Positions 2,277-61,034 of a DNA stretch of 64,000 nucleotides are shown one piece after another. Numbering within the stretch: the first letter of the stretch is position 1; the number at the start of each line of letters is the position of its first letter. The DNA is from a virus. Location of the stretch: IMG/VR virus record IMGVR_UViG_3300035698_026847, positions 6,511-70,510 of that record; one strand, given 5' to 3'. The position numbers were made by a program, and so were the translations under genes. A model generated the notes under the pieces. It saw only the letters and a program-made list of their open reading frames with translations, did no database searches and was not told where the DNA came from.

Positions 2277-2313
2277 CTGATTTCTCCTTAATTACTTTAC
2301 AATATATTTTGTT

Positions 2314-2628: not shown

Positions 2629-2639
2629 TGTGAATCTCC

Positions 2640-6700: not shown

Positions 6701-7263
6701 TATATACTTTTAATTGGGACTTCTATATTTTCATCAATTAATATTTTTGTTTTAGCAGGAAAACATTCATCAGTTACTAATGTAGAATCTTTGAGCCAGG
6801 TATGTACATTGAAAAAACGGCATTTCGAATTGAACATCTCTGGCGTCAGTATGATTAAATTAGCCTTTTTTAATCTACTTTTTAGCTCATCGGTGACATC
6901 TATGTCCCCTGTTAATATTTCAATTCTAAATTTACTGAAAGTATGTTCTTTGCTTGTCCATTCTCGATATTTTTCATCAGCCAAAGCCTTCATTGGAGCG
7001 ATGTATAGAACTCGTTTTTTCGTTTTAATTGCTCTTGCCGCGAATAACTCAGCGATAACTGTTTTACCACCTGATGTTGCGGCAGCAACAACGACATTTA
7101 CATCATCTTCTTCGTTATATGGAAGATAATCGCTCTGTGGTGGATTCAAATATTCAAACGGTAATGAGAGATATTCTTTCACCTCATCCGTATGAACACA
7201 TGGATATGGTTTATTGTGCTTACCAAGAGGTTGCACAACTTTTGTTGGATATTTTTTTGGCAT
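3709..7263 (-). CDS. Ski2/Hel308-like SF2 helicase containing an intein
   Basis: ATSGGKT (motif I), APMKALA, TPE, spliced DE|CH motif II, LSAT, QAIGRAGR (motif VI), C-terminal HhH (IPNIGKKRA). Confidence 0.9.
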   Translation of the reverse strand: MPKKYPTKVVQPLGKHNKPYPCVHTDEVKEYLSLPFEYLNPPQSDYLPYNEEDDVNVVVAAATSGGKTVIAELFAARAIKTKKRVLYIAPMKALADEKYREWTSKEHTFSKFRIEILTGDIDVTDELKSRLKKANLIILTPEMFNSKCRFFNVHTWLKDSTLVTDECFPAKTKILIDENIEVPIKSIYESDSITHVMSYNFEEKKFEKKKVIRKIKNDFSGSGMVSIKFLNDNEDEKKIVCTKNHKIWVKNKGFIKAENIKENDIIKTIGTSRDNICPICNKKIHKKILVPHYIESHLRGMNYKCSVCDRIYRRFSDFTKHKKNCGTKYECPLCFDTFLMKGEMNRHISSHKNKTAKKNWHCEKCKTYYKNEKTLSKHYMKNHGIEYSIKCDLCNRKFDNKYQLMGHTQVAHNDMHSKIDIEKDTKKRLNNPEFWKSMKKMGEKRRGKNNPVFRHEDTLKKMKYGIKKWWDNMPEEERNKRIQIFMNAPYYNKDRKTSCELEIIKMELKDLKYTGDGSFWVRFKNGKNKNPDFIIEGQKKVIEVGDFEYWHTIEEKNEIIKKYNEIKYKCLYLDAKKIDKEKIKTFIGNHDCKVIEVNKFGSGKIKHVYNLEVEDNHNYFANSVLVSNCHLIGLEGRGDALEVGLIQYFENSPKSRALFLSATLPNVDDFGKWLEHMTGRPSKMIVSSYRPCKLNKRVETFSSQRAYAKIEEKRLSKVVDLVDRYKDEPILVFTGSKAFGRKLSSELLRKKIDHRFHNADIGRETKKIKGENGSITVHGRKDIEEGFRNGDFNVLIATTTLSWGINSAARYVIQSHTKFGLTPMHPSNIIQAIGRAGRTGWSDKGDAIVVIPAHEKAKEQKRIFQDYLIESTLSDPNLLMFHILSYICDGIIKNAEDFFEWYKKTLASLQGKPLSVEKCNTVLENLRMRSMISLKNGEYKATKLGEITAKMYMSPLDVSDWFKNFSKIYRIKTKVGAPYDVEVQDNLRIATALARCYNWGITWKYDEFTRKFVQAPSAGVYITNLEKATEDVMEVANLLNMAPDNNPNIKYVAIFYRLLSGKEVSSPLNSYFMGITRDIERVISTLRQCDMYVGRYFHKRNPGKVPGFGWGRDWKNLECRLKYGVRGTLAELVDIPNIGKKRAENLEAKGITSQSQILDPSNKDVCEKAIGKTTYKKVYEHLNL
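5380..6765 (-). mobile_element. 462-aa intein in helicase motif II with a C2H2 zinc-finger array and Vsr/PD-(D/E)xK-like endonuclease
   Basis: Starts CFPAKTKILI; block B CTKNHKIW; block F VYNLEVEDNHNYFAN; ends VLVSN|C; removal restores DECH. Confidence 0.92.
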
Positions 7264-41490: not shown

Positions 41491-42600
41491 CTAGACCGAT
41501 AAATCCTTCTGGATAGACATGAAATTTGGAAAAGATTTTTCGTTTATTGGTATTTCTCTTATCTTCTCTAGAATATCATCAGATATTTTATCTGAAGGAA
41601 GTTCATATAAAATCTTAATATACTGATTTCCAAAAACATCTAATCTAACTTGTTTTCTAAACCCCTTTTTCTTAAGAGTAATAACATATTCGTCTCCTGG
41701 ATTTGGAGGTATGGTATATTTCTCGGTTCCATGAAGGGTTGGAATTTTAATTTCTCCGCCAGAAAAAACAAAATGTACAGGGACTGGCATATTCATATAT
41801 ATGTCGTAATTATTTAATGTAAAAATATTATGCCTTAATAGGTTCGTCTGAAACAACACATCTCCAAACATACCATCCTTTTTTTGGTTTCCTTTTCCAC
41901 GAACCTTAATGGAAAGATTATCGTGAGTTCCAGGAGGAATTTTTAATATGTGTTTTTCTGTTTTTTGTTTAAATCCATTACCAGAACACTCTTTACATTT
42001 GTTCTGTATTTCCTGTCCAGAGCCAGCACACTTAAGGCATATTGTCCTTGAGGAAAAAAACCCTCCTCTATTTGATATTCTGACTCCAGCTCCGTTACAA
42101 TAACTACATGTTATTACATTTGGTTTTCCATCTGCTCCTGATCCTGAACATTTTTCACAACGAAAAATTCGATTATATTCTATTTCTTTTTCACATCCAT
42201 TAAACGCCTCTTCTATGGTTATTTCAATTATTATCTTAATATTTACTGGAGGTGCCTTTCTTTGGCCGGTTCTTTGTTGATTGTATTGGTTTCCTGTAGC
42301 AAATCTTTCAAAAATATTAAATGGATTAAATTCTCTATTTCCGAATGATCCCATGTTAAAAGACTGATTATTGAAGGAGAAGTTTATTGTATTCACTCCT
42401 CCATGATCATACATCTGTCTTTTATTTTCGTCAGAAAGAGTCTCATAGGCTTCTGAGACTTCTTTAAATTTATCTTCTGCTGAAGAATCGTTTGGATTTT
42501 TATCTGGATGATACTTTAAAGCTAGCTTTCTGTAAGCTTTTTTAATCTCATCCTGTGTTGAATTCTTTTTAACATTTAGAATTTTATAATAGTCTTTCAT
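41491..42600 (-). CDS. dnaJ: DnaJ chaperone
   Basis: J domain with HPD; four CxxCxGxG repeats; C-terminal domain. Confidence 0.95.
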
Positions 42601-44189
42601 TAAAATAAATTATCCTGCATAATAAGAGCATCTTGCATAGATGTAATACTAACATCAAACTCTTCTTCTTTCTCTAAAATTTTAAATCTCTCTTTTGAAT
42701 GATCGGAAACCCATCTTCCGCCATCCATAAAGTCAAAAACATAAGATTTTTGTTTTTCGTATGATATTTTTGGATCTACTCTAATTACCCTACCGACTCT
42801 CTGTTTGGCTCTAGTAGCTGCTTTTCCCCCTCCAGCTAGTATCAATCCACTAAGACATGGTAGATCCAGACCTTCGTCAGCAATAACAGATCCTATCAGA
42901 ATTGATATTTTCCCATTAACAAAATCAGACAAAGTATTTCTTCTCTCTTTCTTAGGGGATGAACCGTGAAGAAAAACTGAACCTGGCAATTGAGATTTCA
43001 ACATTTTACCATGTGCTATTATCTGAACAAGGATCATCGTTTTTATATCTTGACTCATTAAAAGATTCGCCAAACTAATTATACACTGATTTCTTTGTTC
43101 ATTCTCTGTAATATGTGATTTTCTGTCTTCTGACCAAGTATTTACTAAAAACGGTTTTTGTTTTAAGTCGATAAATTTTATGTTTGGTTTAACAAGATAT
43201 TTTAACTTAATCAATTCTGAAGCTGTAACGACTGATGTTTTTCTCCCAAAAAGACCCTCTATAGTTAAATACGAGTTGTCTATTCGTTCTGGAGTCGCAG
43301 ATCCCCCAAAACGATAATAAGCGTTTGGAGATTTTAACATTATAGATTTACATGTTTTTGTAGAAAAATGGTGAACTTCATCTGCATATATCCCAACAGT
43401 TTCTGTTATCAATTTTTTTATTAAGTTTCTTTTCTCTTCACTTTCAAGATGTTTAAGATCTTCTTTTTTAAACTCTTTATATTCGGATTCATCCCATTCT
43501 GCAGCGTTTTTAATTTCTTTAAGATATTTTTCTATTGCTTTTTTTGATTTTCCACTAAGATAACATGTAGTAGCTGTTTGAACTGTAACGATGTTTATAT
43601 CTCTTATATCACACTGTCCATCTCCTACAAGACCTACTTTTAATCCTGGGATTGCTTCTTCTAATTTTTCTTGAGATTGGTACATTAAGTCTTTTGTTAG
43701 AACATAAAAGATAAATGGAGCAACACCAAGCTCCTGAATAATCTTAGCTACTATTAGAGTTTTTCCTCCGCCAGTGCAGCACTCTATTATTCCCCTTCCT
43801 CTTCTAATACAGTTTTCAACAATCTCTGTTTGATATTCTTTCCTTAATTTATACTTTTCATGATTCCATGAAAGATCTAATGTTTTGTTTGGTTTTTTAG
43901 TTTCCCAAACGATATCTGGAGTTATGTTATAGTTTTTTCTAAAAAAAGTAACTACTTGATGTGCCAACCCAGAAAGAAAGGTACTTGTTTGTCTTCTATA
44001 AAGATGTATCTTTCCATCCCAAGCTTTTTTCTTTTCTTCTGGATCTTCAATATTTCCAATATATTTATCAGAATATTGACATCCAGGAACTATGAAAGAG
44101 AGATATTCGTATAATTCTCCTCTTACATTATATGGAATGTTTTCTACAGTAGACCATAAATTGCGTAGTCTTATTTTTGGTTTAGCCAT
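42600..44189 (-). CDS. UvsW-like SF2 helicase
   Basis: [31 protein letters not shown]. Confidence 0.9.
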
Positions 44190-44268
44190 CTTATTCTGTC
44201 TATTTCCTCTACCAGTATATAAGATAAAGTGATTCTGGTCTTTTTAAATTATGTTTTAGAAAAATTAT

Positions 44269-44601
44269 TTTTTCTTACCAAGACACTCCGCAGGAGAGTC
44301 TTGCCAGACCACGAAGTGGCTGGCTAATAAAGAAAATTATGCAGAGAATGTTGTTTGATTGATGTTAGATTTTTATTTTTGAAAAAGGTATAATGCTGAA
44401 TCTACTTGGTTTACGAGATTTTCAGAAAAAAAAATGAAGAAAGAGCTAAAACTTTTCCTAAAATTTACGATATTAAGACCGGGTACGGGCTCAGAACCTA
44501 TGTTTCTAAACTTTGGCTTCTAATCTTATTCTAATTTCTTTCTAAGCCAGCCACTTCGTGGTCTGGCAAGACTCTCCTGCGGAGTGTCTTGGTAAGAAAA
44601 A
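44269..44601. repeat. perfect 57-bp inverted repeat (44269-44325 / 44545-44601) with 219-bp spacer at the strand switch; candidate replication origin
   Basis: Arms checked base by base as reverse complements; each arm holds two hairpins with C-GCA-G and C-GAA-G loops. Confidence 0.9.
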
Positions 44602-44774
44602 TATATAAACATATGAAACAGAAACCTATTATAAGCTTCAAATAAATTTAGAAATAAGCTTATTAGAAAAAAAAAAAATATTATATGTTCGAATTTTAAG
44701 AAGTTTATAATAAGTAAAAATTTTTTATATGTTTCGTTTTTCACTAAAATATTTAGCGATTTTATCGATACTAT

Positions 44775-45623
44775 ATGAGAGATCTTAAGATGATATTAGA
44801 AGATATTATATATAAGAAGCCAGAAAGACGTAGACCCAAAGATACTCCGTTATGTGCCTATAGTCCAATTGATTGGTTTCATCTTTTTGCCGCTAAGTAT
44901 CTATATCACACAGGAGAAAGATATAAGTTTACTAATTATAAGAATCAGATTTGGTATATATCAACTATATATGGAATTGTTGTTAATAAATATAATTGGA
45001 GTGCTAGAGATTTTGAAAAATTTATAACAGATATCGCAATTAGATATACTCTTAAAAGGGGTAGAACTCCTAGTTTAAGAGTATTTGCGTTAAATAGTAA
45101 ATCTCATGGTCTAATTAGGATGTTTGATGAGATATTAGTAAGAGAAAGAACACATGATTATTTTGAAAGAATTGTTTTTGTTAAGTTTTACCCACTTAGG
45201 CCAAGTCAAAGAGATCTTGAATTATTTTTTAACAATATGCATAATGAAGGCATTTTATATAATTATGGAATAGTTAATTACCAGAGGTATATTCAGATAA
45301 AACACAAACTATCTTTATCTGAATCGATTAATAAAACTAAAGAAGATTTCCTTAAATATGCTTCCAAAATAAAGAGAGATATAAAAACAAGAGATAGATT
45401 TATTGTTGGAGTTTTCAAGAACTCGGTGTTATGGGAACCGTATACTACTCGTAAGCAGCGAGACATGTATGGCGAAGATAATCTAATTGTAAATTGGAGA
45501 AATGTTTTTAAGAAGATTATCGATCATTTTGATCTTCAAAAAGAAAAATGGTGGAAAGATAAATCATATACATATGAGATTATACAAATAAAAGCAGTGA
45601 ATGATTTTTTCAAAACATTATGA
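44775..45623 (+). CDS. hypothetical basic protein, candidate replication initiator
   Basis: First gene after the inverted repeat and upstream of DnaC-like and DnaB genes; function inferred from position only. Confidence 0.5.
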   Translation: MRDLKMILEDIIYKKPERRRPKDTPLCAYSPIDWFHLFAAKYLYHTGERYKFTNYKNQIWYISTIYGIVVNKYNWSARDFEKFITDIAIRYTLKRGRTPSLRVFALNSKSHGLIRMFDEILVRERTHDYFERIVFVKFYPLRPSQRDLELFFNNMHNEGILYNYGIVNYQRYIQIKHKLSLSESINKTKEDFLKYASKIKRDIKTRDRFIVGVFKNSVLWEPYTTRKQRDMYGEDNLIVNWRNVFKKIIDHFDLQKEKWWKDKSYTYEIIQIKAVNDFFKTL

Positions 45624-45635
45624 AGGATTTAATTT

Positions 45636-46487
45636 ATGTCAAAAGAACATATTGGATGTGAGGATTTACCAGACGATAGAATGAAAAATATTCTTTCCGC
45701 ACATATTGGTTTAGAAAATAGAATTAAAGAAAAACTTAAAAAAGAAAGTAATATTCCAAAGATTTATTGGAAATATAGTTGGAAAAGCTATCAGCCTAAA
45801 AACAACATAAGAGAGACTGGAGATATTAATATTCCAGGAGTTGTTAAATCAAGATTGGAAGCGAAGAAGAAATGTTTACTTTTTGTTAGAGATATAATAT
45901 CTTCATATAAAGAAAAAGACAATAAAGATGAAAAAAATTCATTATGTTTAATTGGTCATAGCGGATCTGGGAAGTCTGTTCTTGGAACTTTAATATTAAG
46001 GAACGTCATACATTTCCTTAAAGAATCTGTATTTTACGAGACATTTAACCAATTAGTAATAGACTGTAGGACGGCTAATTTCAAAGAACATGCAGAAGAA
46101 TTGTTTGATAAATATATTGAACCAGAATTTCTAATGATTGACGAAATAGAAAGGGGATATTATTTAGATGAGAAAATAAAAACATACATTTCTATTATCA
46201 TTGGAAGAAGAGCTTCAGAATGTAGACCGACAATTTTAACGGCGAACATAGAGATATCAGAAGAACTTTCAAATATTTTAGGAGTTTCTACATATAGGGT
46301 GTTGGAAAGAGGATCGGTATACTATAAACCTATTGAAATAGACACCCTAGTTAAACATAAAAGAATTGATTTAAAAAAATTAAAAAAAGAATTAGAATCT
46401 GAAAAATATAATAGAAAATATTATATTTCACGAGAAGATTTTAGTGAAATGACAACAAGGTGTATAGAGGGGTATTTTCATGGGTAA
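45636..46487 (+). CDS. DnaC/IstB-like helicase loader ATPase
   Basis: SNIPKIY, GHSGSGKS, LMIDEI, PTILTAN. Confidence 0.85.
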   Translation: MSKEHIGCEDLPDDRMKNILSAHIGLENRIKEKLKKESNIPKIYWKYSWKSYQPKNNIRETGDINIPGVVKSRLEAKKKCLLFVRDIISSYKEKDNKDEKNSLCLIGHSGSGKSVLGTLILRNVIHFLKESVFYETFNQLVIDCRTANFKEHAEELFDKYIEPEFLMIDEIERGYYLDEKIKTYISIIIGRRASECRPTILTANIEISEELSNILGVSTYRVLERGSVYYKPIEIDTLVKHKRIDLKKLKKELESEKYNRKYYISREDFSEMTTRCIEGYFHG

Positions 46488-48186
46488 GGAAAAACTAAGC
46501 GGAATTATAACTGAATATGAGAAAAATATTCTTCATTATGTTTTATCAGACATTAAACATCTTCAGTATGTGTTTGGCGAAAGAAAAATTAAGACATTAT
46601 ATTTTAAAGATCCAGATATTAAACTGCTTCTAGATATTGCAACTGATAATTTTCGTCAGCATCAAACAAAATTAGTAAGAGAAGAGTTGGAATTACATCT
46701 TGACGCCAAAAGAACGGCCAAAAGTATAGATAAAATTGAATATCAAAATCTACTTGGCGTGTTTGATGAAGTTACTGGTCCTGATTATGATTTGAAAGAT
46801 GAGCAATTTACGAGAGTCTTTAAGTCGTGGCTTGAAATTGAAGCGTCTCCGAGAGTAGAAACAATAATACAAAAAAACCTTCATCTCGTAAAGGAAAATA
46901 AAGGTCTTGAGTTTGTTAGAGTGATGAATGAGGCTTTTGAAAAAGATCTGGTTTATCCAGATAAATTTGCGTCTGTAATTTCATCTCTAGATATAAAAAG
47001 AGATTCAAATAGACAAGTACAAGATTTTGAAGACAGAAGAGACCCAGAAAAAAGAAAGGAATTAATTGGTATTCCTACGGGGATTCCAAAGCTAGACAAA
47101 ATATTTGCCGGTTTCGAAACAAAAGGAGGATCATTAACTTTAGTTGGTGGATTAGTTGGACATGGGAAATCGACCCTTATGCTTAATATTAGCAGAAATC
47201 AAGCAATGAAGCCAAGTATAGGGAAGAAGATTTTAACCGTAACATTAGAAATGCCAGATATCCAATGGGTTAGGAAATTTAATTGTATTGATTTACAGAT
47301 GAAATATTTAGACTTTCTTGTGGGAGATAGAAAATCAGTTTCAGAGACTCAGGCAGAACAATTTATACAGAAAATAAAAAATAGAAGTTCGTCAATGCCA
47401 GGAGAATATAAAGTTCTATTTATTCCGGCAAAGGCTTATTCGTGGGATCAGATCGTCAACGAAATAGATAAAAGATTCCCAGGATATAATCCCGATATTA
47501 TTTATATAGATCAGTTATCTTTGATTGGTTTTGGTAAATATTCAAAAGAGAGACCGGATTATGCGTTAGGATTAATAGTTAGAGATATGAGAGCATATGC
47601 TCAAATTAGAAAGATTGCTATCGTACTGGCCGTTCAGGCAAATAGAGCTTCAGTAATAAGATCGAAGAATGGAGAAAGAGAAATTGATATTAATATTGAA
47701 AATGTAGAAGATTCAAATAAAGTTGGAGCTCATGCTGATAATTTTATAGCAATTCATCAAGAGGGAGATGAAAAAATATTTATTAAAATAGCAAAACAAA
47801 GAGAGGGAGCAAAAAAGGTAATTTCACTAAAAGCGAATCAAGATATGTGTTTGTTTTATGACGAGGGAGACCCCGATATGATATGTAAATTACCAGAGAT
47901 TGAGGGTGATGATAGCGATGACGATTCCGACGAAACGATTTTTGCTGAAGAAATTGAAGAAATTGGAGGAGTTGAAAAAAAGAAAACTCTAGATGATGTA
48001 CTTAGAAATGTTAATTCGAAAAAAAATTCAAAATCTAATATCAAAAAAGTGGAATTAGACGATGTGTTTGACGAAGACACAAACTCTCTTTTCGAGCTTG
48101 ATAATGAAGAAATTAATAATGTGCTAAAGGAAGATGTCGAAGAAAACAAGACTAAAACTAAAGATGCGATAATGGATCTGCTGTAA
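46480..48186 (+). CDS. dnaB: DnaB-like replicative helicase with acidic tail
   Basis: GIPTG...LD, GLVGHGKST, TLEM, IYIDQL, QANR, ADNFI, KQREG. Confidence 0.9.
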   Translation: MGKEKLSGIITEYEKNILHYVLSDIKHLQYVFGERKIKTLYFKDPDIKLLLDIATDNFRQHQTKLVREELELHLDAKRTAKSIDKIEYQNLLGVFDEVTGPDYDLKDEQFTRVFKSWLEIEASPRVETIIQKNLHLVKENKGLEFVRVMNEAFEKDLVYPDKFASVISSLDIKRDSNRQVQDFEDRRDPEKRKELIGIPTGIPKLDKIFAGFETKGGSLTLVGGLVGHGKSTLMLNISRNQAMKPSIGKKILTVTLEMPDIQWVRKFNCIDLQMKYLDFLVGDRKSVSETQAEQFIQKIKNRSSSMPGEYKVLFIPAKAYSWDQIVNEIDKRFPGYNPDIIYIDQLSLIGFGKYSKERPDYALGLIVRDMRAYAQIRKIAIVLAVQANRASVIRSKNGEREIDINIENVEDSNKVGAHADNFIAIHQEGDEKIFIKIAKQREGAKKVISLKANQDMCLFYDEGDPDMICKLPEIEGDDSDDDSDETIFAEEIEEIGGVEKKKTLDDVLRNVNSKKNSKSNIKKVELDDVFDEDTNSLFELDNEEINNVLKEDVEENKTKTKDAIMDLL

Positions 48187-48767
48187 TGGCTTCTGAAAAC
48201 AAATTAATATATACGGATATATGCGAAGAAATCAAAGCAACCGTCAGTCTCCAGGACGAAATGGAGAAGCATGGAGTGACTTTATTGAGGTCGGGTAGGC
48301 GTTTGCGTTGTGTATGCCCATTTCATGACGATTCAGATCCGTCTATGTATATTAATATTGAAGATGATCCGGAATGGTTTTTCTGCTTTGGATGTGATAA
48401 AAACGGAACAGTAATAGATTTTATACAGTATTTTCAAGGAACGAATCTTACAGATACTATAAAATATTTTTGCGACAATTATGCATTTAAGAATTCAGTA
48501 AATGTTGTTAGCATAGAAGACCTACTTGCAAAAGATTTAAAAAAAAAGAAAATTAGGCATCTTGTTATTCCATTTGCAATGAAATCCTCTATTTTGGTTA
48601 ACTCTTTTCTAAAAGAGTCTTCTGATAAAAAAAGAGATCTAAAATCAATTAAACCTCTTTTGAAGGAAATTGATCGTGCCGTTGAGATGGAAGACAGAGT
48701 TTATTTGAAGTCTGCGTGTAGGGTTTTGGACAATGTTATAGAGGCCAAGAAAAAAAAGAGAAACTGA
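48186..48767 (+). CDS. stand-alone DnaG-type CHC2 zinc-binding domain protein
   Basis: CPFHDDSDPS...FFCFGC..NGTVIDF; no TOPRIM domain. Confidence 0.85.
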   Translation: MASENKLIYTDICEEIKATVSLQDEMEKHGVTLLRSGRRLRCVCPFHDDSDPSMYINIEDDPEWFFCFGCDKNGTVIDFIQYFQGTNLTDTIKYFCDNYAFKNSVNVVSIEDLLAKDLKKKKIRHLVIPFAMKSSILVNSFLKESSDKKRDLKSIKPLLKEIDRAVEMEDRVYLKSACRVLDNVIEAKKKKRN

Positions 48768-50060: not shown

Positions 50061-53000
50061 ATGACTGTTGAATTCGTTCATCTACATTGTCATACAGATT
50101 ATTCGCTGTATGACGGATTTATGTCGCCTGAAAATCTTGTTAAGCGAGTATCTGCCTTAGAGCAGTCTGCCGTAGCAATTACAGAGCATGGCAAGGCTGC
50201 TGGGTTTATTAAGTTCCAGGATGCATGTAAGGAAAACAATGTAAAGCCTATTTTTGGTTGTGAGCTTTATATGTCTCACGATCTTGATATAAAGAAAACA
50301 AAGCGTTATCATATACTTATTCTTGCCAAGGATAATGAAGGATTAAAAAATATTTATAGACTTTCTGCGGAGGGACATAAAAATTCAGCATATGGCTTCC
50401 CGAGGGTTAATTTTGATATATTAAAAGATCATAAAGAAGGGCTTATTATTCTTTCTGCCTGTATCGGAGGAGAAATACCACAACTGCTTTTGGCAGATAA
50501 AGAGGACGAGGCAACGAAAGTTGCTCAGCAATATAAGGATGTTTGGGGAGATGACTTTTATCTAGAAATTGATTGGCATGGGCTTCCTGATCAAAAGAGA
50601 GTAATTCCAGGAATTAGGAGAATTGCAAAAGATCTTGATATAAAAACGGTAGTGACTAACGATTGTCATTACATAAGCAAGCGTGATGCAAAGTATCAAC
50701 AGTTTAAGAAGTCCATTTTACAAGGAAGACCTATACCGGATAGCGATTTAGATGTTGAAGAATATTATGTAAAATCATATGAAGAGATGGCTGGACTTTT
50801 CCCTGGCAAAAAAGCTTGGTTGAAGGCTATGCATAACACGGTTGAGATTGCAAACAAATGTAACGCTGAAATTGTTTTTGGAGAGGCCAATCTGCCAAAG
50901 TTCATTTTCGAAGAAACCGATGAATATAAAGAATTTAGAGATTCTCAGTTTGGCAAAAACGAAGAACAGATGTATTTGAAGTTTAAGGCGTTGGAAGGTC
51001 TCAAGTGGAGAGGGCTGGACCAGGACAATAAGTATAGAGATAGACTGGAAGAGGAACTTGAGACGATTCGTTTTACGGGATTTGATCGTTATTTCCTAAT
51101 TGTTGCTGAATATTGCGAGTGGGCCAGGAATGAGAATCTTCGTCTCGGTGCGGGACGCGGCTCGGGTGTAGGTAGCCTTGTGTTATACTGCCTTGGAGTT
51201 ACTGGAATTGACCCAATTAAATATAAACTTGGAATGGATAGATTTCTTTATTCAGAGGCAGAATATCGGGTTGGAATTGGAGATTTTTTCCAAGATCAAG
51301 AAAATCCTGTTTGGGAATCACAAGGAAAAGGAAGCCGAACAAGAGAGAGGACCGAAGAGGAGAAGATGAGTGGTAAAAAAATTCTGGACGCTTGTAAGAA
51401 AAGAATAGAAAAATTAGGACTGTCAGAAAAAGAGACAAAAAGAATAAAAGATGAACTTAAATTCATTTTATTCAAACCTACTCTTGTTGATGATATTGTT
51501 GATATAGTAAAATATAAAAAAGAATCTGGTAAGATTGGAGACGTAAACAAAGTAAACTCTTCCCTGTTTAATGTCCTTGGAATAACATCTAAAGAGGCAG
51601 ATGTTTTAAAAGATTTTCATTTTGAATTTATCGTAGATAAACAACAGAGTCGTATCAGTCCTCCTGATATTGATATTGATTTTGAACACAGAGAGAGAAT
51701 CCTTCAGCATTTATGTGAAATATATGGGGAAGATCAGGTTGCTTTAATTGGCACGGTGAATAAATTTAAACCAAAAGCTGCTATTCAGTTCGCTGCAAAA
51801 GCTACAAACATTGTAAACACTCAATATACAGATGAAAAAAGGTTTAGTTCAGAAAACGATCAAGAAGCAAAGCGTATTTCTAAAATAATGTTAAACCTCC
51901 CAATAACGCTCTCTCAGTGGACTGGAGAAGATCCAGATTTTTCCCCAACAAACAAACGAGTACGAGAGGCGATGGATGCCATTAAGGTTGAGAAGAGGAA
52001 ATATCCACTTGCCTTCGATGTGGCTTCTCGACTTGAAGGAAAAATCAAAGCTTACGGCACTCATGCCGCAGGAGTTGTAATATCTTCAAGACCAATTACG
52101 GAAGATATACCGCCTCATGTTGCCAAGGTACAGAGGGATAATTTGATTGATTCTGGCTTAAGTTGGGATGACCATGATTTGATCAAAAAACAAAAAACAC
52201 ATGATTTAATGACGACGCAGTTCGATATGGATGAAGTTGAAAGACTTGGTCTACTTAAGTTTGATTTCCTGCAATTAAACACTTTAAGGCAGATATCTTT
52301 AACATTGGATCTCATTAAGGCTGTAGGTAAAGAGGTAGATTTTGATATCGATGGTCTTGAGACTGATGATAAAGAAGTTTTCAAAACAATTAATGATATG
52401 AAACTTGAGGGTTTGTTTCAGATCTCGGGAGATGCTTTTAGAGGAAAAGATTGGCATAAAAACGATAAAGAAACCGGAGAGAAGGCTTATAAAAAAAACA
52501 AGAAAGGAGAATATATATTAGACGAAAACGGGAAAAAGGTTGCTGATATTTGGCATCAGAAAGGCGTGATGGAGATTATTGGTTGCTCTAATTTCGATGA
52601 TATTGTTGCTCCAAACGCCCTTGGTCGTCCAGGCCCACTTGCCTGCAACATGCCTAAGGCATATGCTGAGGGGAAAAAGAATCCTGATAGGATTGAATAT
52701 CCACATGAGAAACTGAAAGATATACTTGAGCCAACATACGGAACTTTATGTTTTCAGGAACAGCTTATAAAGATGGCTCAGATTCTTGCCGGGTTTACGT
52801 TCTCTGAGGCAGACGGTCTAAGGAAGGCGTGTGCAAAAAAGAAAATCGAAATGCTTGCCCCTATTGAGCCGAAGTTTAGGGCTGGATGTAAGAAAAATGG
52901 GGTAGATGAAGATATTGTTGATTTAATGTGGGGCATAGCTATAGAATTCGGCGAATATGCTTTTAATCTTTCACATTGTTTATCTGAAAATTCCCTATTG

Positions 53001-53267
53001 TTCGATAAGGAAAAAAACGAATTTATCGAAGTGAAAGATATTTATGGTGGATGTATTTTAGACTCTTATCTTGATGGAAATTTAGTAGAAGATGAAGTTG
53101 ATGAGTTGATATATGCTGGGGTCCAGGATGTTTATGAGGTGGAATTGTCAAGTGGACAAAAAACAGAATGTACATTGGAACATAAATTTTTATGTTCTGA
53201 TGAAAAATATAGAACAGTTAGTGAGATAATAGAAGGTGATTTTGAAATTTTATACGAAGTCTCATAG
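50061..53267 (+). CDS. dnaE: DNA polymerase III alpha, N-terminal part fused to a split N-intein
   Basis: HLHCHTDYS.YDG PHP domain, GRGSG, PDIDID, HAAG, KFDFL, RPGP, FQEQ, FNLSH|C then intein blocks A/B. Confidence 0.95.
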   Translation: MTVEFVHLHCHTDYSLYDGFMSPENLVKRVSALEQSAVAITEHGKAAGFIKFQDACKENNVKPIFGCELYMSHDLDIKKTKRYHILILAKDNEGLKNIYRLSAEGHKNSAYGFPRVNFDILKDHKEGLIILSACIGGEIPQLLLADKEDEATKVAQQYKDVWGDDFYLEIDWHGLPDQKRVIPGIRRIAKDLDIKTVVTNDCHYISKRDAKYQQFKKSILQGRPIPDSDLDVEEYYVKSYEEMAGLFPGKKAWLKAMHNTVEIANKCNAEIVFGEANLPKFIFEETDEYKEFRDSQFGKNEEQMYLKFKALEGLKWRGLDQDNKYRDRLEEELETIRFTGFDRYFLIVAEYCEWARNENLRLGAGRGSGVGSLVLYCLGVTGIDPIKYKLGMDRFLYSEAEYRVGIGDFFQDQENPVWESQGKGSRTRERTEEEKMSGKKILDACKKRIEKLGLSEKETKRIKDELKFILFKPTLVDDIVDIVKYKKESGKIGDVNKVNSSLFNVLGITSKEADVLKDFHFEFIVDKQQSRISPPDIDIDFEHRERILQHLCEIYGEDQVALIGTVNKFKPKAAIQFAAKATNIVNTQYTDEKRFSSENDQEAKRISKIMLNLPITLSQWTGEDPDFSPTNKRVREAMDAIKVEKRKYPLAFDVASRLEGKIKAYGTHAAGVVISSRPITEDIPPHVAKVQRDNLIDSGLSWDDHDLIKKQKTHDLMTTQFDMDEVERLGLLKFDFLQLNTLRQISLTLDLIKAVGKEVDFDIDGLETDDKEVFKTINDMKLEGLFQISGDAFRGKDWHKNDKETGEKAYKKNKKGEYILDENGKKVADIWHQKGVMEIIGCSNFDDIVAPNALGRPGPLACNMPKAYAEGKKNPDRIEYPHEKLKDILEPTYGTLCFQEQLIKMAQILAGFTFSEADGLRKACAKKKIEMLAPIEPKFRAGCKKNGVDEDIVDLMWGIAIEFGEYAFNLSHCLSENSLLFDKEKNEFIEVKDIYGGCILDSYLDGNLVEDEVDELIYAGVQDVYEVELSSGQKTECTLEHKFLCSDEKYRTVSEIIEGDFEILYEVS
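52977..53267 (+). mobile_element. split intein N-fragment (96 aa, acidic)
   Basis: CLSENSLLF...CTLEHKF (TxxH block B) then a stop codon. Confidence 0.9.
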
Positions 53268-53295
53268 AGTATGTTTCGATAAGGAGATTCGTGTA

Positions 53296-54438
53296 ATGAC
53301 CAAGGAAAGGATAGCTCCAAACAGAGTTGAAGTATCTATAGAAAATTATAGAATAATAAGAAAATTATATTTTCAAAGTAATTCTCTTGAGAAAATACAT
53401 AAAAAAACAAAATTTACAGTTAGAGTGCTGCAGAGAGTTAGGAATGAAAATAAATTAATAGAAAAAAGAGAAAGATATTATAGATTTTTATGTTATTTAT
53501 CCTTTTCTACAGAAACTAGATTAGAAAATATATGTAAAAAAACAGGAGTTAGATACACATCTTTAATTAAGTTTAGGAAAAGAAAATGCATAAGGACTAG
53601 GAAAAAATTACATCCAAAAAACAAGAGAATGACCGATAAGTTAGAGAATAAGATAATAAATGATTATAATAACGGATTGGTATCTCGTGAAATAGCTTTG
53701 AAATATGGGTTTAAAACGGGAAAAACTGTTTTGGATGTTCTAGAAGATAAAGATATCAAAAGAAGAGAATCTAAGAAAATAACATTTTATAATGTTGAGT
53801 ATTTTGATAAAATAAATTCAAATGAAAAGGCTTATATTTTAGGATTGCTTTTGACGGATGGTTATGTTTTGAAAAATTATGACGGGATTGCAATTCAGCT
53901 TATAATTGATGATAAGTATATTCTTGAGAAAATTGCTAATGAATTAGGTAAATCCGCAACAGTCATAGATATAGACTGTTCAGTTAGAAGGAAGAAGAGT
54001 AAATATAACATCAAAGACGCGGCTAGGATGTCATGTCACTCTAAGGAAATATCAATGAGTTTAAGGAAGTTCGGAGTCGTTAGAAACAAAACATTAATTT
54101 TAAAATGTCCTATTATATATAAAAAGTATTTATCCCATTTTTTTAGAGGACTGATTGATGGCGATGGATGTATTGGGAAAAATAAAGATGGGTATTTGTG
54201 GGTGAACTTAGTGAGTGCATCAAAAGATTTCGTTGAGGGCGTTATTGAACTACCTTCTGGATTTAAATTTAGTTTAACAGAAAGGAAACCGGAAAATGAA
54301 AAGCATAATTTAATTTATAAAATGAGTGTTCTTGGAGGGCAGATCGAGAGGATTCGTTTTTTGAGATGGATGTATAAAAATAATGATGGATGGTTTTTAA
54401 GGAGAAAATATGAAAAAGTGCAAAGTTTTATCAACTAA
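53296..54438 (+). CDS. free-standing double-motif LAGLIDADG homing endonuclease with N-terminal HTH repeats
   Basis: YILGLLLTDG and FFRGLIDGDG; start refined to ATG 53296 after AAGGAG. Confidence 0.9.
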   Translation: MTKERIAPNRVEVSIENYRIIRKLYFQSNSLEKIHKKTKFTVRVLQRVRNENKLIEKRERYYRFLCYLSFSTETRLENICKKTGVRYTSLIKFRKRKCIRTRKKLHPKNKRMTDKLENKIINDYNNGLVSREIALKYGFKTGKTVLDVLEDKDIKRRESKKITFYNVEYFDKINSNEKAYILGLLLTDGYVLKNYDGIAIQLIIDDKYILEKIANELGKSATVIDIDCSVRRKKSKYNIKDAARMSCHSKEISMSLRKFGVVRNKTLILKCPIIYKKYLSHFFRGLIDGDGCIGKNKDGYLWVNLVSASKDFVEGVIELPSGFKFSLTERKPENEKHNLIYKMSVLGGQIERIRFLRWMYKNNDGWFLRRKYEKVQSFIN

Positions 54439-55084
54439 AAAGATAGGTGAAAAACAGACATTTAACATTTCAATGAAGTCAAACCAACATAATTATGCTG
54501 TTTTTGGAGAAGATAAAAAAAGATTTGTAATCAGTAAAAATTCAACAGCTTATGGATATATAACATATCAAACAGCTTATCTAAAAACATATTATCCAGC
54601 AGAGTTTATGTCTGCTCTTTTGACCAGTGCCGCGTCTCAAAGTGATGATAAACTTGAACTTGTTAAGTCTAGATTGAAAGAAGAATATAAGAAAATGGAG
54701 ATTATTTTACCAGATATTAATTCTAGTAAAAAAACATATTCTCCAACCGAAGACTCGACAAATAGCAAACCTAAAATAAGAGCACCATTCATGTCAATGA
54801 AAGGTGTAGGGACAAAGGTGTCCGACGCAATTGTCGATGCGAGGGAAGAATATGGAGAATTTATATCTATTGAGCATTTTCTTGGGGCATTGAATTCTGG
54901 TGTGAAATCAATGGTGTCAAACTCCTTGGCTGAGCTTTTAATTTTAAAAGGATCATTTGATAGTATTGGAGATAAAGAGAAGATTATGCAAGATATGGTT
55001 AGATATAATTCAATTAGAAAAAGAGTTATGAAAGGAAAGAAGAGCTATAATGATCCGCTGATTGAGCAAGAACCGGTTTGGTGA
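54410..55084 (+). CDS. dnaE: split intein C-fragment (44 aa) fused to the DnaE C-terminal part
   Basis: KIGEKQTFNI...HNYAV...ISKN|STAYGYITYQTAYLKTYYPAEF, PDINSS, HhH motif KGVG. Confidence 0.92.
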   Translation: MKKCKVLSTKKIGEKQTFNISMKSNQHNYAVFGEDKKRFVISKNSTAYGYITYQTAYLKTYYPAEFMSALLTSAASQSDDKLELVKSRLKEEYKKMEIILPDINSSKKTYSPTEDSTNSKPKIRAPFMSMKGVGTKVSDAIVDAREEYGEFISIEHFLGALNSGVKSMVSNSLAELLILKGSFDSIGDKEKIMQDMVRYNSIRKRVMKGKKSYNDPLIEQEPVW

Positions 55085-57589: not shown

Positions 57590-57605
57590 TTTACGACGAT
57601 TTCTC

Positions 57606-58848
57606 AACTCATCCCACGACTAAAGTCGTGGGATGAGTTTGGGATAAAAGTAACATTTCAGATATATGATTAAAACATACAAATATAAGTTATATAATTC
57701 AAATAAGAATCGTGCTTTGCACGATTCTATAAATACAGCATGCTTGGTGTATAATCATTGTATTTCTCTTCATAAGCGATATTATCGTTTATATAAAAAA
57801 ACATTAAACACTTATCATCTTCAAAAACATTTAACAAAACTAAAGAAATTAGATAAATATAAAAAATGGAAAACATTAAATTCTCAAACAATTCAAGATA
57901 TATCAGAAAGAATAGAGAAATCATATAGACAATTTTTTAGAAATTTAAAGAAACATAGACCGCCAAAATTTAGATCAAGATATCATTATAAATCTATAAC
58001 ATTTAAACAATGTGGATTTAAATTATTAGACGACAATAAAATCAAAATAGGAGGAAGGACATATAGATATTGGAGATCGAGAGGTTTCCGGGGAAAAATA
58101 AAACAATTCCTTGTAAAACGAGATACATTGGGAGATTTTTATATTTTCTTTTCCGTAGAGAAAGAATTAGAACAAAAGGCATTCAAGACGGGTAAAATCG
58201 CAGGATGCGATTTTGGTTTAAAAATTTTTCTAACTACTTCGGATAATGAAAAAATAGAATCTCCATTGCATTTTATGAATAATTTGAATGAATTAAGAAG
58301 AAGAAGTAGAAATCTATCAAAGAAGAAAAAATGTTCCAATAATAGAATAAAGGCAAGATTAAGTATTGCTAGAACCCATCGAAAGATTCAGAATCAAAGA
58401 CATGATTTTCATTTTAAATTAGCAAATAAATTAGTTGAAAAATATGATAAACTTTATTTCGAAGATTTAAATTTAGATGGAATGAAAAGATTGTGGGGTC
58501 GCAAGGTCTCTGACCTTGCTTTTGATCGGTTTTTAAGAATCCTAGAATGGAAGGCGTTAGAAGAGGGAAAAGAAGTAGAATATATAGATAGGTTTTTCCC
58601 AAGCAGCAAACTTTGCAGTAACTGTGGAACGATTAATAAAAATTTGCAGTTGAAAGAGAGGGAATGGACCTGCGTCTGCGGCACAGTCCATGATCGAGAC
58701 TTTAATGCTGCTAAGAATATATTAAGAGCTGGGACATCAGCTTATGAAGGAGATAAATCCTCTTACTCTTCTCGTCAGAGAAGAGTAAAGGTTTATTGTT
58801 GATATCAAGAATTCTTCGACTTTAGTCGCAGTCGCAGGAGTATGTCAA
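57606..58848 (+). mobile_element. IS200/IS605-family (IS1341-type, tnpB-only) element
   Basis: Left hairpin AACTCATCCCACGACT-AA-AGTCGTGGGATGAGTT; right end CGACTTTAGTCG...GGAGTATGTCAA; exact left boundary uncertain. Confidence 0.8.
57666..58802 (+). CDS. tnpB: TnpB RNA-guided endonuclease
   Basis: KTYKYKLY, RuvC-I GCDFG, RuvC-II FEDL, Zn ribbon CSNC...CVC, RuvC-III HDRDFNAAKNI. Confidence 0.95.
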   Translation: MIKTYKYKLYNSNKNRALHDSINTACLVYNHCISLHKRYYRLYKKTLNTYHLQKHLTKLKKLDKYKKWKTLNSQTIQDISERIEKSYRQFFRNLKKHRPPKFRSRYHYKSITFKQCGFKLLDDNKIKIGGRTYRYWRSRGFRGKIKQFLVKRDTLGDFYIFFSVEKELEQKAFKTGKIAGCDFGLKIFLTTSDNEKIESPLHFMNNLNELRRRSRNLSKKKKCSNNRIKARLSIARTHRKIQNQRHDFHFKLANKLVEKYDKLYFEDLNLDGMKRLWGRKVSDLAFDRFLRILEWKALEEGKEVEYIDRFFPSSKLCSNCGTINKNLQLKEREWTCVCGTVHDRDFNAAKNILRAGTSAYEGDKSSYSSRQRRVKVYC

Positions 58849-58941
58849 AACCCTAGCAATGCATACGGATTTATGGTGAATTTTATATCTTATTTGTATG
58901 GTGTTTATGTGCGGTTTTGTTTTATAAAAAGGGGATTTAAA

Positions 58942-60234
58942 ATGGCTAATAAAAAACAATCTAATCTAGAAAAAGTTGTTGATGGTTTTGATGGAGAAGA
59001 ATCTGCAGAAGATAATATGGAAGTTGAAGAAGATGATAAACAAAAGCAAGCAAAAGATATGATAGATAAAAAAAGAGCAGAAATTCAAAAGAAAAAGCAA
59101 GATGCAGACCGTAAGGCGGAAAAGGAAGCAAAAAAGGTAGAAGAAGAAACGAAAAAGACTTTAGATGTATTGAACAAGAAATATAAAACTGGTATCGTCA
59201 CGTTTGGATCAAGTAGTCTTGCAAATGTTGAGTGGTTAGATAGCGGGATAGAAGAGTTGAACGAGACGATCTCCGGGATTAAAGACGGTGGTTGGCCAAG
59301 AGGAAGAATGATTGAATTGTTTGGTCCGGAAAGTTCTGGGAAGACTGCAATGTTGTCGTGGGCCTATGCCTCTGCTCAGAAAAAAGGACTGAAGGTTCTA
59401 CATTATGATGCTGAAGGAACTTACAATAAAGAATTCGCCGCAATGAATGGTGTTGATGTTTCTAAGTTGCATTATTCAGAAGAAGATCGGTGTGAAAAGA
59501 TCTTTGAAGAAATAGAAGGATTCTGTTTGAATAATGAATATGATATTATTGGAGTCGATTCACTTGCTGCTTTAGTTCCAACTAGAATGGCGGAATCCGA
59601 AATGGGTAAACAAGATTATAGTCCATTGGCTGGAGCTATTTCAAGATGTATGCCGAAAGTAAGTAGTGCAATTAAGAGGAGTAAAACGGTTGTTATTTTC
59701 GTAAATCAGGTCAGAGATAATGTCGGTGTAAAGTATGGGGATGCAGAGAAAACCCCAGGTGGAAGAACATTAAAATTCTATGCTTCTCTTCGTATTGATG
59801 TTAGAAGGAAATCTTCCAAAAAAGGAGAGTTTCCATATTTATATGATGCGGATGGACGACCAATTGGTCATCGTATGAATGTCAAGATGGCGAAGAATAA
59901 GCTTTCTATTCCTTTCGGTCAGTGTATTATAGATCTCATGTACAAGAAGCCAAGTCCTATTATGCAGATTGTTTCAGAGGCAATTGAAACAGATGTGATA
60001 GAAAGACAGCGAAGGAAAGATGGGGTACTTTGGGGTAAGAAATTAACCTATATGGATCGTAATTTTGCTCCAAATTCAAAATACAGTGCAAGTGAAACTA
60101 TTTTCTGGCTAAAGGAAAACGGATTGCTCTGTAGTCTTTTGGCGGATATGGGCGTTGAAGATTTTGATGAGTTTATTGAAGCTGGAGATCTTTCAGAAGA
60201 CGATATAACAAGTTATTTGGTCTCGACAATATAA
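58942..60234 (+). CDS. recA: RecA recombinase with charged N-terminal extension
   Basis: GGWPRGRMIELFGPESSGKT, DAE, VDSLAAL, FVNQVR, TPGGRTLKFYASLR, KNK; start refined to 58942. Confidence 0.95.
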   Translation: MANKKQSNLEKVVDGFDGEESAEDNMEVEEDDKQKQAKDMIDKKRAEIQKKKQDADRKAEKEAKKVEEETKKTLDVLNKKYKTGIVTFGSSSLANVEWLDSGIEELNETISGIKDGGWPRGRMIELFGPESSGKTAMLSWAYASAQKKGLKVLHYDAEGTYNKEFAAMNGVDVSKLHYSEEDRCEKIFEEIEGFCLNNEYDIIGVDSLAALVPTRMAESEMGKQDYSPLAGAISRCMPKVSSAIKRSKTVVIFVNQVRDNVGVKYGDAEKTPGGRTLKFYASLRIDVRRKSSKKGEFPYLYDADGRPIGHRMNVKMAKNKLSIPFGQCIIDLMYKKPSPIMQIVSEAIETDVIERQRRKDGVLWGKKLTYMDRNFAPNSKYSASETIFWLKENGLLCSLLADMGVEDFDEFIEAGDLSEDDITSYLVSTI

Positions 60235-60278: not shown

Positions 60279-61034
60279 ATGTCTCTCTATTTGAACGATA
60301 ACTTAAGTATAGAGTATGAGAAGGCATGTCGGTTCTTCCAAAGACAACTTTATGATGGTGATAAATCAAATGTCGCAACGGAGTATTTGGAGAAAAGGGG
60401 TATCAGTCGAGATGTTGCTGAAAAATTTTCTGTTGGTTGGTGCCCTTCAGATACAAAAATATGGAAGAAGTTAGAACAGTTGAAGGGAATGGTTATTTTC
60501 CCAATAAAAGACGAATATGGTGATATTTTGGCTTTCTCTGGAAGATCGCCAAATGATAAAAGTGAGATAAAAAGTGGAACAAAGAGATGGTGGAATGAGT
60601 CTTACAATAAATCGTTTTTCTTTTATGGTCTTGATGCGGCTCTGCCAAATATTCTTAAAAGAGATTATATGATAATAGTCGAAGGCCAGACGGATGTAAT
60701 ATCTTGTCATAAATTTGGTTTAGATTTTGCAGTAGGTTTAATGAGTAAAGATCTTTCAGAGATGCATATAGCTAAACTTTCTAGATTCACATTTAATATC
60801 ATTCTAATGTTAGATGGAGATAATGCCGGAAGGCAAGCTACAGAAAAGATAAAACAAACATTAAAGTTGCATCGTTTGCCGGGCCATGATTATAGAAAGG
60901 GGTATAATGTTATAGATATCAACATGAATGCGAAGGGCGTTTCGTATGATCCTGATGAGTTTTTAAGGAAATACGGTCCTCGTTCTTTGATTAAAGAAAT
61001 CGGAAGACAGAAAAAACTTATTGAAAGTCAATAG
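60279..61034 (+). CDS. DnaG primase catalytic core (TOPRIM) lacking the zinc-binding domain
   Basis: YLEKRGI, IFPI...AFSGR, VEGQTDV, LDGDNAG, DPDEF. Confidence 0.9.
   Translation: MSLYLNDNLSIEYEKACRFFQRQLYDGDKSNVATEYLEKRGISRDVAEKFSVGWCPSDTKIWKKLEQLKGMVIFPIKDEYGDILAFSGRSPNDKSEIKSGTKRWWNESYNKSFFFYGLDAALPNILKRDYMIIVEGQTDVISCHKFGLDFAVGLMSKDLSEMHIAKLSRFTFNIILMLDGDNAGRQATEKIKQTLKLHRLPGHDYRKGYNVIDINMNAKGVSYDPDEFLRKYGPRSLIKEIGRQKKLIESQ

Follow-up and report, generated by a model that had tools for sequence, protein, structure and literature searches.

What is the function of the intergenic gap at which every long open reading frame in the sequenced part of an uncultured salt-lake phage changes direction? 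The gap, of 585 nt (44190-44774), lies in a window of 64,000 nt that comprises bases 6511-70510 of a linear 70,510-nt IMG/VR virus record (IMGVR_UViG_3300035698_026847), and it contains a large inverted repeat, each arm of which folds into two adjacent hairpins with loops of the C-GNA-G type, that is, three-nucleotide GNA loops closed by a C-G pair. A sequence-only reading of the window had proposed that this is a bidirectional replication origin specified by structure. Here we describe that the inverted repeat and its folds are far beyond chance and that the gap is supported as the best origin candidate of the contig, as it lies directly upstream of a conserved operon for a protein in the initiator position, a DnaC-like protein, DnaB, and a primase zinc-ribbon protein. 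We put the probability that the gap is an origin region in which the hairpin units serve as single-strand DNA signals at about 0.4. The first part of this proposal, that the gap is an origin region, appears somewhat better than an even bet; the second, that the hairpin units act as single-strand initiation (ssi) signals within this origin, is tentative and is made by analogy with known systems.

Two mirrored hairpin units in the gap

CheckV estimated the contig to be 34% complete, which places the phage genome at about 200 kb, and identical pieces were present in contigs from four salt-lake metagenome runs. The gene strand switch that the sequence-only reading had noted at this locus is real: the long open reading frames lie exclusively on the - strand up to 44189 and exclusively on the + strand from 44775, and the genes keep one direction over at least 44 kb in one of the two diverging blocks and over at least 19 kb in the other. 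Within the gap, the arms of the inverted repeat (Table 1) are 67 nt long, 97% complementary, and 199 nt apart, with two mismatches, at 44326 and 44328. Direct reading of the two perfect cores of 57 nt (44269-44325 and 44545-44601) confirmed that a GC-rich 57-bp unit is inverted without error across 219 bp. On the + strand of the left arm, the first hairpin (h1, 44279-44303) reads CAAGAC-A-CTCC[GCA]GGAG-A-GTCTTG, with the loop at 44290-92 and an A.A mismatch in the stem, and the second hairpin (h2, 44303-44324) reads GCCAG-A-CCAC[GAA]GTGG-CTGGC, with the loop at 44313-15 and a bulged A at 44308. The right arm has the same hairpin letters, and hence the GNA loops, on the - strand; read on the + strand, h2' occupies 44546-44567 (loop TTC) and h1' occupies 44567-44591 (loop TGC). 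The description of each unit as two adjacent C-GNA-G hairpins therefore holds letter for letter in both arms. One G is common to both hairpins of each unit, and folding adds an outer A/T stem of 6 to 7 bp, so that each arm would form a three-way junction.

The arm folds have z-scores of -3.9 to -4.9 as RNA and of -5.4 and -6.3 as DNA, and none of 200 shuffled sequences was equally stable in any of the six folds. The 70,510-nt contig has no copies of the unit other than these two, as determined with a 47-nt probe allowing up to 12 substitutions and with each hairpin alone allowing up to 5. Hairpins of the C-GNA-G type with a stem of at least 4 on either strand number 13 in the contig, compared to 4.7 +/- 2.2 in 30 shuffles; the two arms account for 4 of these 13, and the count is otherwise near the chance level. 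Such d(GNA) loops closed by C-G are described as unusually stable in passages of two papers (PMC3201870; PMC13037366). Judging from the strands on which the hairpins lie, synthesis on each GNA strand as a template would proceed outward on both sides.

Beyond this contig, two pattern scans for the arm unit in IMG/VR gave no match, and a search of 185,579 genomes gave a single match, inside the ruvA frame of a Saccharibacteria metagenome-assembled genome, where about one is expected by chance. The other scanned windows contained no look-alikes of either the arms or the helicase. A single transcript spanning both arms would form a 67-bp duplex of -145 kcal/mol. A reading of the arms as terminators was rejected, as there are no terminator-like sites in 43800-45000 and the arms are without T-runs; a hairpin at 3647 is followed by Ts.

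Surroundings of the repeat and comparison with related loci

The least stable duplex of the contig is found at this locus: 44630-44813 ranks first in the whole contig for duplex instability at scan widths of 100 and 170 nt and third at 60 nt. The AT-rich flank contains an A12 tract (44667-78), which is one A shorter in the contig from run X1, a homopolymer length difference between samples. It had been claimed that the gap has no obvious iterons or DnaA boxes, and we found no DnaA box in 44190-44774; the window has 11 matches with one mismatch, compared to a shuffled mean of 20.6. The repeats that we did find in the gap are limited to AAGCTT, which occurs twice (44633 and 44656), and short A/T-rich repeats.

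To the right of the gap, domain matches confirmed the order of genes that had been read from the sequence (one without assignment, followed by genes for a DnaC-like protein, DnaB, and a primase Zn domain), and the DnaG-type primase of the phage is split over two genes, encoding the zinc ribbon and the Toprim core. The 282-aa protein encoded next to the gap belongs to a family with 49 representatives at an E value of ≤0.001 and 36 at ≤1e-30 among 1.84 billion proteins, and the family gene is always the first in the operon, before the genes for the DnaC-like loader and DnaB. The predicted structure of the 282-aa protein is all-alpha, with a mean predicted local distance difference test (pLDDT) score of 80.6. 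A word-based homologue search and Pfam gave no matches for this protein, PHROGs matched none of nine family members, a profile search of PDB returned only E values of ≥0.05, Foldseek returned nothing from PDB at E ≤0.001, and the Atlas structure matches were all below 0.9 or had a template-modeling (TM) score below 0.4. In a wide structural search, the best match was a DnaD domain (Z 5.4; root mean square deviation, 3.0; 72 residues), which is within the noise for helical models. An N-terminal winged helix was recognized in one of six long-form members (HTH_5, 23.7 bits, with a cutoff of 22). About six such long forms carry an extra N-terminal half of ~300 aa, and in L101 this half is encoded by iteron-rich DNA, which is reminiscent of lambda, where ori lies inside gene O. 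From its gene position alone, we infer that the 282-aa protein could be an initiator or a replication organizer.

The helicase encoded to the left of the gap has relatives with identities ranging from 72% to about 45%, and a helicase alignment was used to fetch 65 metagenome loci and 34 viral loci; a helicase from ENA (P0001) has 72% identity, and tblastn with the helicase returned only matches below 60% identity. In the closest relative, L002, the helicase is 72% and the family protein 45% identical. The L002 gap aligns with that of the window at 63% identity over 147 nt in the spacer (E = 1e-6; window 44380-44523) and at 63% over 126 nt adjoining the family gene. At the position of the right arm (1572-1619), L002 reads GGCGGGAAC[GTA]GTTTTCGCC, four bases, and GCCATTCACG[ATT]CGTGGATGGC, which is again two adjacent triloop hairpins. 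This unit differs in sequence from that of the window; what the two share is limited to the flanks CCAAG and TGGCTT and to the lowest four pairs of the second hairpin. A covariance model of the window and L002 units was abandoned, as MAFFT gave no structural register, and a tandem-hairpin descriptor was used instead (two adjacent triloop hairpins, each with at least 8 pairs, at least 4 G-C pairs, and at most one interruption, with an inter-hairpin gap down to -2). In a search space of 1,306,781 bases on both strands, made up of all fetched loci and the window, this descriptor matched only the two window arms and the one site in L002.

The L002 match is confined to the helicase-sense strand, which is the GNA strand of the right arm in the window, and the three imperfect pairs of the L002 unit are G.T on this strand and A.C on the other. 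The L002 unit folds at -26.9 kcal/mol on the GNA strand compared to -20.6 kcal/mol on the opposite strand as RNA, and at -13.4 compared to -11.0 kcal/mol as DNA. On the GNA strand, the two phages together have four distinct loops, three of which are C-GNA-G; one of these three, C-GTA-G, is from L002. The irregular stem position, which is a bulge or mismatch in the window and a wobble in L002, is located at the same height in each hairpin. Taken together, this comparison suggests that the right-arm unit is conserved in shape and not in sequence. The unit on the family-gene side is the only one common to the window and a relative; the left arm could have arisen from the right arm by inverted duplication, or L002 could have lost a counterpart of it. 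In place of a second unit, L002 has an insertion (1900-3436) between the helicase start and the origin-like gap; it consists of an IscB gene (2192-3436, 414 aa; RRXRR, E = 2.1e-56, plus HNH) preceded by about 290 nt of GC-rich hairpins that are likely an omega-RNA.

The order DnaB, DnaC-like protein, a protein of 275 to 325 aa, a gap of 600 to 900 nt, and helicase was found in L003, L004, L007, L009, L017, L021, and L022, and these proteins of 275 to 325 aa are homologous to the 282-aa protein of the window (24 to 45% identity). The L003 gap contains four copies of GCTTGTAC(A) around a T17 tract and four copies of GCTTTT, the L004 and L021 gaps contain long T-tracts followed by repeats of the TTATAAAGG/TTTAAAAGG type, and in L101 many repeats of the TTTCGCAGAT type, both direct and inverted, are located immediately upstream of the homologous domain. 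With these T-tracts and iterons, the gaps of the relatives look like origins as far as can be judged from sequence. Inverted repeats are present in L004 (2297-2355/3066-3124, 59 nt, 83%) and in L021 (3651-3715/4355-4419, 65 nt, 85%); they abut both diverging gene starts and include a promoter-like motif, and their appearance is that of promoter-leader copies in mirror image and not of hairpin units. In L004, this repeat is present a third time, at 2918-2953. Among the single, unrelated hairpins of other relatives, the helicase-sense fold is the stronger one in L003 (-15.9 versus -10.7) and L007 (-13.9 versus -10.5), and the reverse is seen in L009. A separate GC-rich hairpin, CCCCACCC-ACAAG-GGGTGGGG followed by TTC/TTTTCT, is an element common to distant relatives: it occurs twice in the related contig G002 (L102:17469-17495 and 19333-19359), with one copy 17 nt upstream of the gene for the 282-aa homologue, and in L019 (408-460) it has a C-TTC-G hairpin inserted in its loop and is located 45 nt upstream of the helicase gene.

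Promoter-like sequences were also compared. One of these, TTATCGATACTAT, is located at 44762-74 in the AT-rich flank, and a motif of the form TCGTATAAT or TTGTCG(A/T)TAWW precedes at least five genes of the window in the sense orientation. The promoter-like motif is found 20 to 45 nt before the helicase start codon in L001/L019, L003, L004, and L021 and 20 to 45 nt before the start codon of the family gene in the window, L002, L003, L009, and L021. In the window, the motifs lie between the arms and the genes, and the arms are therefore upstream of the nearest promoters and would not be transcribed from them. The spacer has a TATAAT at 44389-94 (+ strand) and a TATCG-type promoter-like motif at 44463-75 (- strand), of which the TATCG core and flanking bases align with L002; a scan for sigma-70-type consensus promoters gave three matches, all outside 44269-44601, and none between the arms. 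The promoter-like stretch before the 44775 gene (44741-44775) is matched, with 5 differences over 35 nt, in all four runs by a far more abundant contig (depth of 19 to 105 compared to 2 to 4), which diverges on both sides of this stretch; another abundant entity may share it.

Table 1. Features of the gap and of the replication genes around it (window positions)
Feature	Position	Strand	Remarks
Helicase-side flank	44190..44268	-	24% GC; weak promoter-like ATCTTATATAC at 44225 down to 44215, - strand, between left arm and helicase start
Left arm	44269..44335	+	GNA-loop hairpins h1 and h2 on + strand; outer stem TTTTCTT/AAGAAAA
Spacer	44336..44534		199 nt, 30% GC
Right arm	44535..44601	-	GNA-loop hairpins on - strand; structural counterpart in L002
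AT-rich flank, candidate DNA-unwinding element	44602..44774		173 nt, 17% GC
SF2 helicase	42600..44189	-	ResIII, Helicase_C, faint UvsW_N; first gene of leftward block; marker used to find relatives
Initiator-position protein, 282 aa	44775..45623	+	New all-alpha family
IstB/DnaC-like AAA+ protein, putative helicase loader	45636..46487	+	IstB_IS21, E 6.3e-07
DnaB-type replicative helicase	46480..48186	+	DnaB_C, E 1.1e-19
Stand-alone DnaG CHC2 zinc-ribbon protein, template-recognition part of split primase	48186..48767	+	Zn_ribbon_DnaG, E 2.6e-17
RecA	58873-60234		
DnaG catalytic core	60279..61034	+	DNAG_N and Toprim; 11.5 kb away

A proposed origin weighed against other functions

In light of these data, we propose that replication starts in the gap in the following way. 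The 17%-GC tract (44602-44774) would open beside the gene in the initiator position, possibly helped by negative supercoiling from diverging transcription, and the DnaC-like loader would put DnaB on the opened DNA. As unwinding spreads, the arms would become single stranded and would fold into C-GNA-G hairpins that resist single-stranded DNA-binding protein (SSB), on the - strand in the right arm and on the + strand in the left arm, and synthesis on each hairpin-bearing strand would then proceed outward, in the direction of the 5' end of this template. By analogy with ssiA/ssiB and with phage G4, the units may mark leading-strand starts for the split DnaG primase or for the helicase-loading machinery. 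Several known replicons fit this model: in plasmid R1, a G4-type site downstream of oriR starts the leading strand, and the origins of lambda and SPP1 are located in or beside the initiator gene. It also fits that diverging transcription puts negative supercoils between promoters. The most specific form of the proposal, in which the mirrored C-GNA-G pairs beside the meltable tract would be leading-strand start signals of a bidirectional, structure-specified origin and would be read by the split primase, with the free zinc ribbon as reader and a separate Toprim core, would place the ssi logic of G4 and RSF1010 in a theta origin of the DnaB/DnaC type; in this form we consider it doubtful.

The closest known system is ssiA/ssiB of the RSF1010 oriV, and the next closest is the DnaG-dependent G4-type origin. 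The locus described here is a member of neither family, because it has no sequence likeness to them, its primase is not of the RepB' type, and each of its units has two hairpins. In passages of PMC8567376, ssiA and ssiB are described as a pair of inverted repeats of 40 nt each, located on complementary strands, in which nt 7-27 form a hairpin, and in passages of PMC13037366, ssiA is described as carrying a CCGAAGG mini-hairpin, with mini-hairpins also present at the G4 origin and at N4 promoters. The same passages have the ssi sites exposed by the helicase after AT-rich opening, each starting one leading strand with the RepB' primase (PMC8567376; PMC13037366). Similarly, the units of the phage are near identical (67 nt, 97%), inverted, and on complementary strands, in a gap whose status as an origin we infer, and h2 (CCAC[GAA]GTGG) has the C-GAA-G mini-hairpin cap reported in those passages. 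In contrast to RSF1010, there are two hairpins per unit, the units measure 57 to 67 nt instead of 40 nt and are 199 to 219 nt apart, the primase is a split DnaG-type enzyme, with no RepB' or Prim-Pol primase found in the 34%-complete contig, the replicon belongs to a double-stranded DNA phage of ~200 kb that encodes DnaB and a DnaC-like loader, and no sequence similarity is seen. For G4, St-1, and alpha3, clustered hairpins with GNA or GNNA loops in single-stranded DNA are reported, in the passages of PMC13037366, to resist SSB and to direct a DnaG-type primase. The likeness to this group consists of the two C-GNA-G hairpins per unit on the template strand (DNA z-scores of -5.4 and -6.3) and of the DnaG zinc ribbon and Toprim core that the phage encodes; however, G4 is a single-stranded DNA phage with one site on one strand, whereas here two mirrored sites are located in a double-stranded genome.

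Several observations weigh against this proposal. The composition flip that the sequence-only reading had seen is real, and the cumulative GC skew has its minimum at the gap (contig base ~50,500, i.e., window base ~44,000), but the flip coincides with the gene-strand switch, which makes the skew uninformative on an origin. In G002, a related contig of 146.8 kb, the skew changes sign with the strand of the open reading frames at switches near 20, 82-90, 116, and 144 kb, and in the 140-kb contig G001, where the gene for the 282-aa homologue lies among co-oriented genes, the skew is positive on both sides. The GC skew here therefore reflects the coding strand and was excluded as independent evidence of an origin. 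The least stable duplex is the flank between the right arm and the 44775 gene, beside and not inside the inverted repeat, which makes a symmetric origin centered on the spacer doubtful. Clear iterons are lacking from the window gap. The G.T pairs of the L002 unit suit RNA better than DNA, this unit is only weakly exceptional as DNA (z = -2.5), and its having all three imperfections on one strand has an estimated chance of ~0.25 if they arose from transitions. L002 is also without a second, inverted copy, so that the mirrored design is not conserved, and two identical arms are in any case not required by the origin model. Other relatives have single, unrelated hairpins 130 to 290 nt from the family gene. 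Mini-hairpins of the C-GNA-G/GNNA type are only mildly enriched in the gaps of eight relatives (9 in 6.03 kb, compared to a background of 0.44 per kb), their strand geometry is inconsistent, and three of the eight gaps have none. No primase of the RepB' or Prim-Pol type was found in the contig, a search for which the PF16793 control was also without a match and which covered a contig that is 34% complete, and the structure searches confirmed no DNA-binding or initiator fold for the family protein, the DnaD match at Z 5.4 being within the noise. Of the symmetric, structure-based origin that had been proposed, what stands is the gap as the best origin candidate, with the least stable duplex and with a unit at the right-arm position in L002; its symmetry does not stand as well, given that the melting tract lies in one flank and that the second copy is absent from L002.

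In an alternative reading, the units would work as RNA. Outward promoters in the spacer would cause both transcripts to start with the same ~60-nt two-stem RNA (loops UUC and UGC, with a U bulge and a U.U mismatch), which would be bound by a phage protein or would affect RNA polymerase in cis, with antitermination across the long one-way blocks, RNA stabilization, or co-regulation as possible effects. We consider such leader RNAs unlikely, even though the layout is that of HK022 putL and putR, which passages of PMC9378689 describe as elements of ~70 nt each with two stem-loops with bulges and a shared sequence, located downstream of the diverging PL and PR; the likeness to HK022 put and lambda nut is thus one of two-stem-loop elements that are mirror-placed in diverging transcription units. 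The arms fold equally well as RNA and DNA, an outward reading keeps the succession 5 bp, break, 4 bp, and triloop in both hairpins of the window and L002, and the G.T pairs and weak DNA z-score of L002 (-2.5) agree with an RNA. Blocks of at least 44 kb and at least 19 kb would profit from processive antitermination, and the TATAAT and the L002-shared TATCG-type motif are located in the spacer, but these two promoter candidates face each other and not outward, and the consensus scan gave no sigma-70-type promoter between the arms. Unlike in the put and nut systems, the recurrent promoter-like motif is downstream of the arms, between them and the genes. The outward reading of L002 is the weaker fold (-20.6 compared to -26.9 kcal/mol), and the GNA bias is on the strand that would not be RNA and has no known meaning on the RNA strand produced. 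There is no sequence similarity to the put and nut elements, no Rfam family reached its gathering score in the whole window, and the E-value mode gave only unrelated families for 44150-44800 (E ≥0.17). If the RNA reading were true, put-like antitermination would extend far beyond the lambdoid phages. Proteins could also recognize the arms as duplex DNA, since each hairpin is palindromic in the duplex as well, and the arms would then be pairs of imperfect palindromes (25 and 22 bp) for dimeric regulators that loop the 199-nt spacer in the manner of lambda OL/OR, or sites of cruciform extrusion. Two identical mirrored clusters would suit looping, and the symmetric half-site change between the window and L002 would fit a coevolving dimer site. 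However, the palindromes within an arm resemble each other in neither sequence nor spacing and would therefore require two proteins, the arms do not overlap the promoter-like motifs and are 80 to 170 nt away from the starts of the genes, none of the neighboring genes is repressor-like, and the bias towards C-GNA-G centers (3 of 4 loops) would be left without an explanation; we regard this reading as improbable.

The hairpins could also be promoters of the N4 type, i.e., template-strand GNA hairpins for a single-subunit RNA polymerase of the phage that would direct early transcription outward into both blocks. As described in passages of PMC13037366, the hairpin of N4 promoters consists of a stem of 5 bp and a loop of 3 nt, GGA or GAA, with the enzyme contacting the central G of GGA and a purine at the center in both. 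The likeness lies in template-strand DNA hairpins with 3-nt GNA-type loops, extruded from duplex DNA and pointing outward on both sides (PMC13037366, in the same passages), and the GAA loop of h2 fits. The top stems in the window, however, have only 4 bp before the interruption, and the center of the loop is C in h1 and T in the L002 hairpin, so that stem length and loop center do not agree with the N4 pattern for two of the three GNA loops. No T7-like RNA polymerase domain was found in the contig, with the control search also without a match and the contig 34% complete, and the phage carries a sigma-like factor, for which the Sigma70_ECF match is only faint. Promoters of this type are very unlikely here. 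That the inverted repeats flank a short, TATAAT-bearing segment would also be expected of an invertible switch, in which the 199-nt spacer would be turned around by a recombinase and a promoter thereby redirected. The search of the 70.5-kb contig for domains of serine and tyrosine recombinases (Resolvase, Phage_integrase) gave none, with both controls positive, and the "resolvase" label of one contig protein was rejected, as this protein is a PDDEXK endonuclease. The spacer was not seen in the opposite orientation: there was no inversion joint in any of the four runs, as judged from low-depth contigs (2 to 4.5) in which rare forms are dropped. Contigs from runs X1 (44318-44766) and X3 (44473-44661) join spacer, right arm, and right flank in the window orientation, and the contig from run X4 (44256-44524) includes only 13 nt of the left flank. 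L002, moreover, has a single unit, and the recombinase sites known to us are far shorter than the arms; a switch is scarcely credible. The identity of the arms over 57 nt fits a recent event, which could have been the insertion of a selfish element of 333 bp resembling a miniature inverted-repeat transposable element (MITE) or a functionless inverted duplication. These phages do carry mobile elements (TnpB at 57666-58802 and IscB in L002), and a possible 3-nt TAT is found on both outer sides, but in DNA of 25% GC this is weak evidence and not significant. The scattered copies and target-site duplications of a MITE were not found: the contig has two copies only, IMG/VR none, and the 185,579 genomes the one chance-level ruvA match. 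The spacer and the right arm have counterparts in L002, and the 333 bp are thus not one insertion; no Y1 transposase was found in the contig. This origin of the repeat is highly improbable, and a more specific assignment as IS200/IS605 ends or a REPIN was rejected because of the missing Y1 transposase, the inverted and not direct arrangement of the arms, and the presence of two copies only.

Other features of the contig and implications of the locus

The rightward block continues after the zinc-ribbon gene with ClpP and then a split DnaE. Inteins or LAGLIDADG inserts are present in a DEAD helicase, a ClpB-like ATPase, a class II ribonucleotide reductase, and DnaE (3709-7263, 30892-34311, 34861-38598, and 50061-55084), and Pfam also recognizes inteins in many relatives of the 42600-44189 helicase. 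The TnpB gene (OrfB_IS605, E = 1.3e-23, and Cas12f1-like TNB), within 57590-58870, lies between hairpins at 57601 (-27 kcal/mol) and 58753, which are stronger than all others in the + block. The two hairpins had been considered as terminators; this was dropped, since they flank the TnpB gene, and they are probably insertion-sequence ends or omega-RNA. TnpA was not found in the contig. Outside the window, contig bases 1-530 begin with 20 bases that recur at base 511 and include repeats of the CCAGAA type; this region is probably repetitive coding sequence. Neither a tRNA nor a tmRNA was found, and 43000-47000 had no megablast match among 50,697 phage records.

To our knowledge, the replication origins of giant phages, most of which are uncultured, are largely unmapped. 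A full-text search returned, among the matches listed, no jumbo phage paper that combines origin of replication, hairpin, inverted repeat, and DnaB. If the gap is indeed an origin whose hairpin units serve as single-strand DNA signals, it would be a second independent case of the ssi principle, which has so far been tied to IncQ plasmids and single-stranded phages, and the choice of start site by a split DnaG primase could be studied on a natural substrate. Mirrored mini-hairpins together with a melting tract would then be an origin landmark that can be read from sequence in metagenomic phage genomes.

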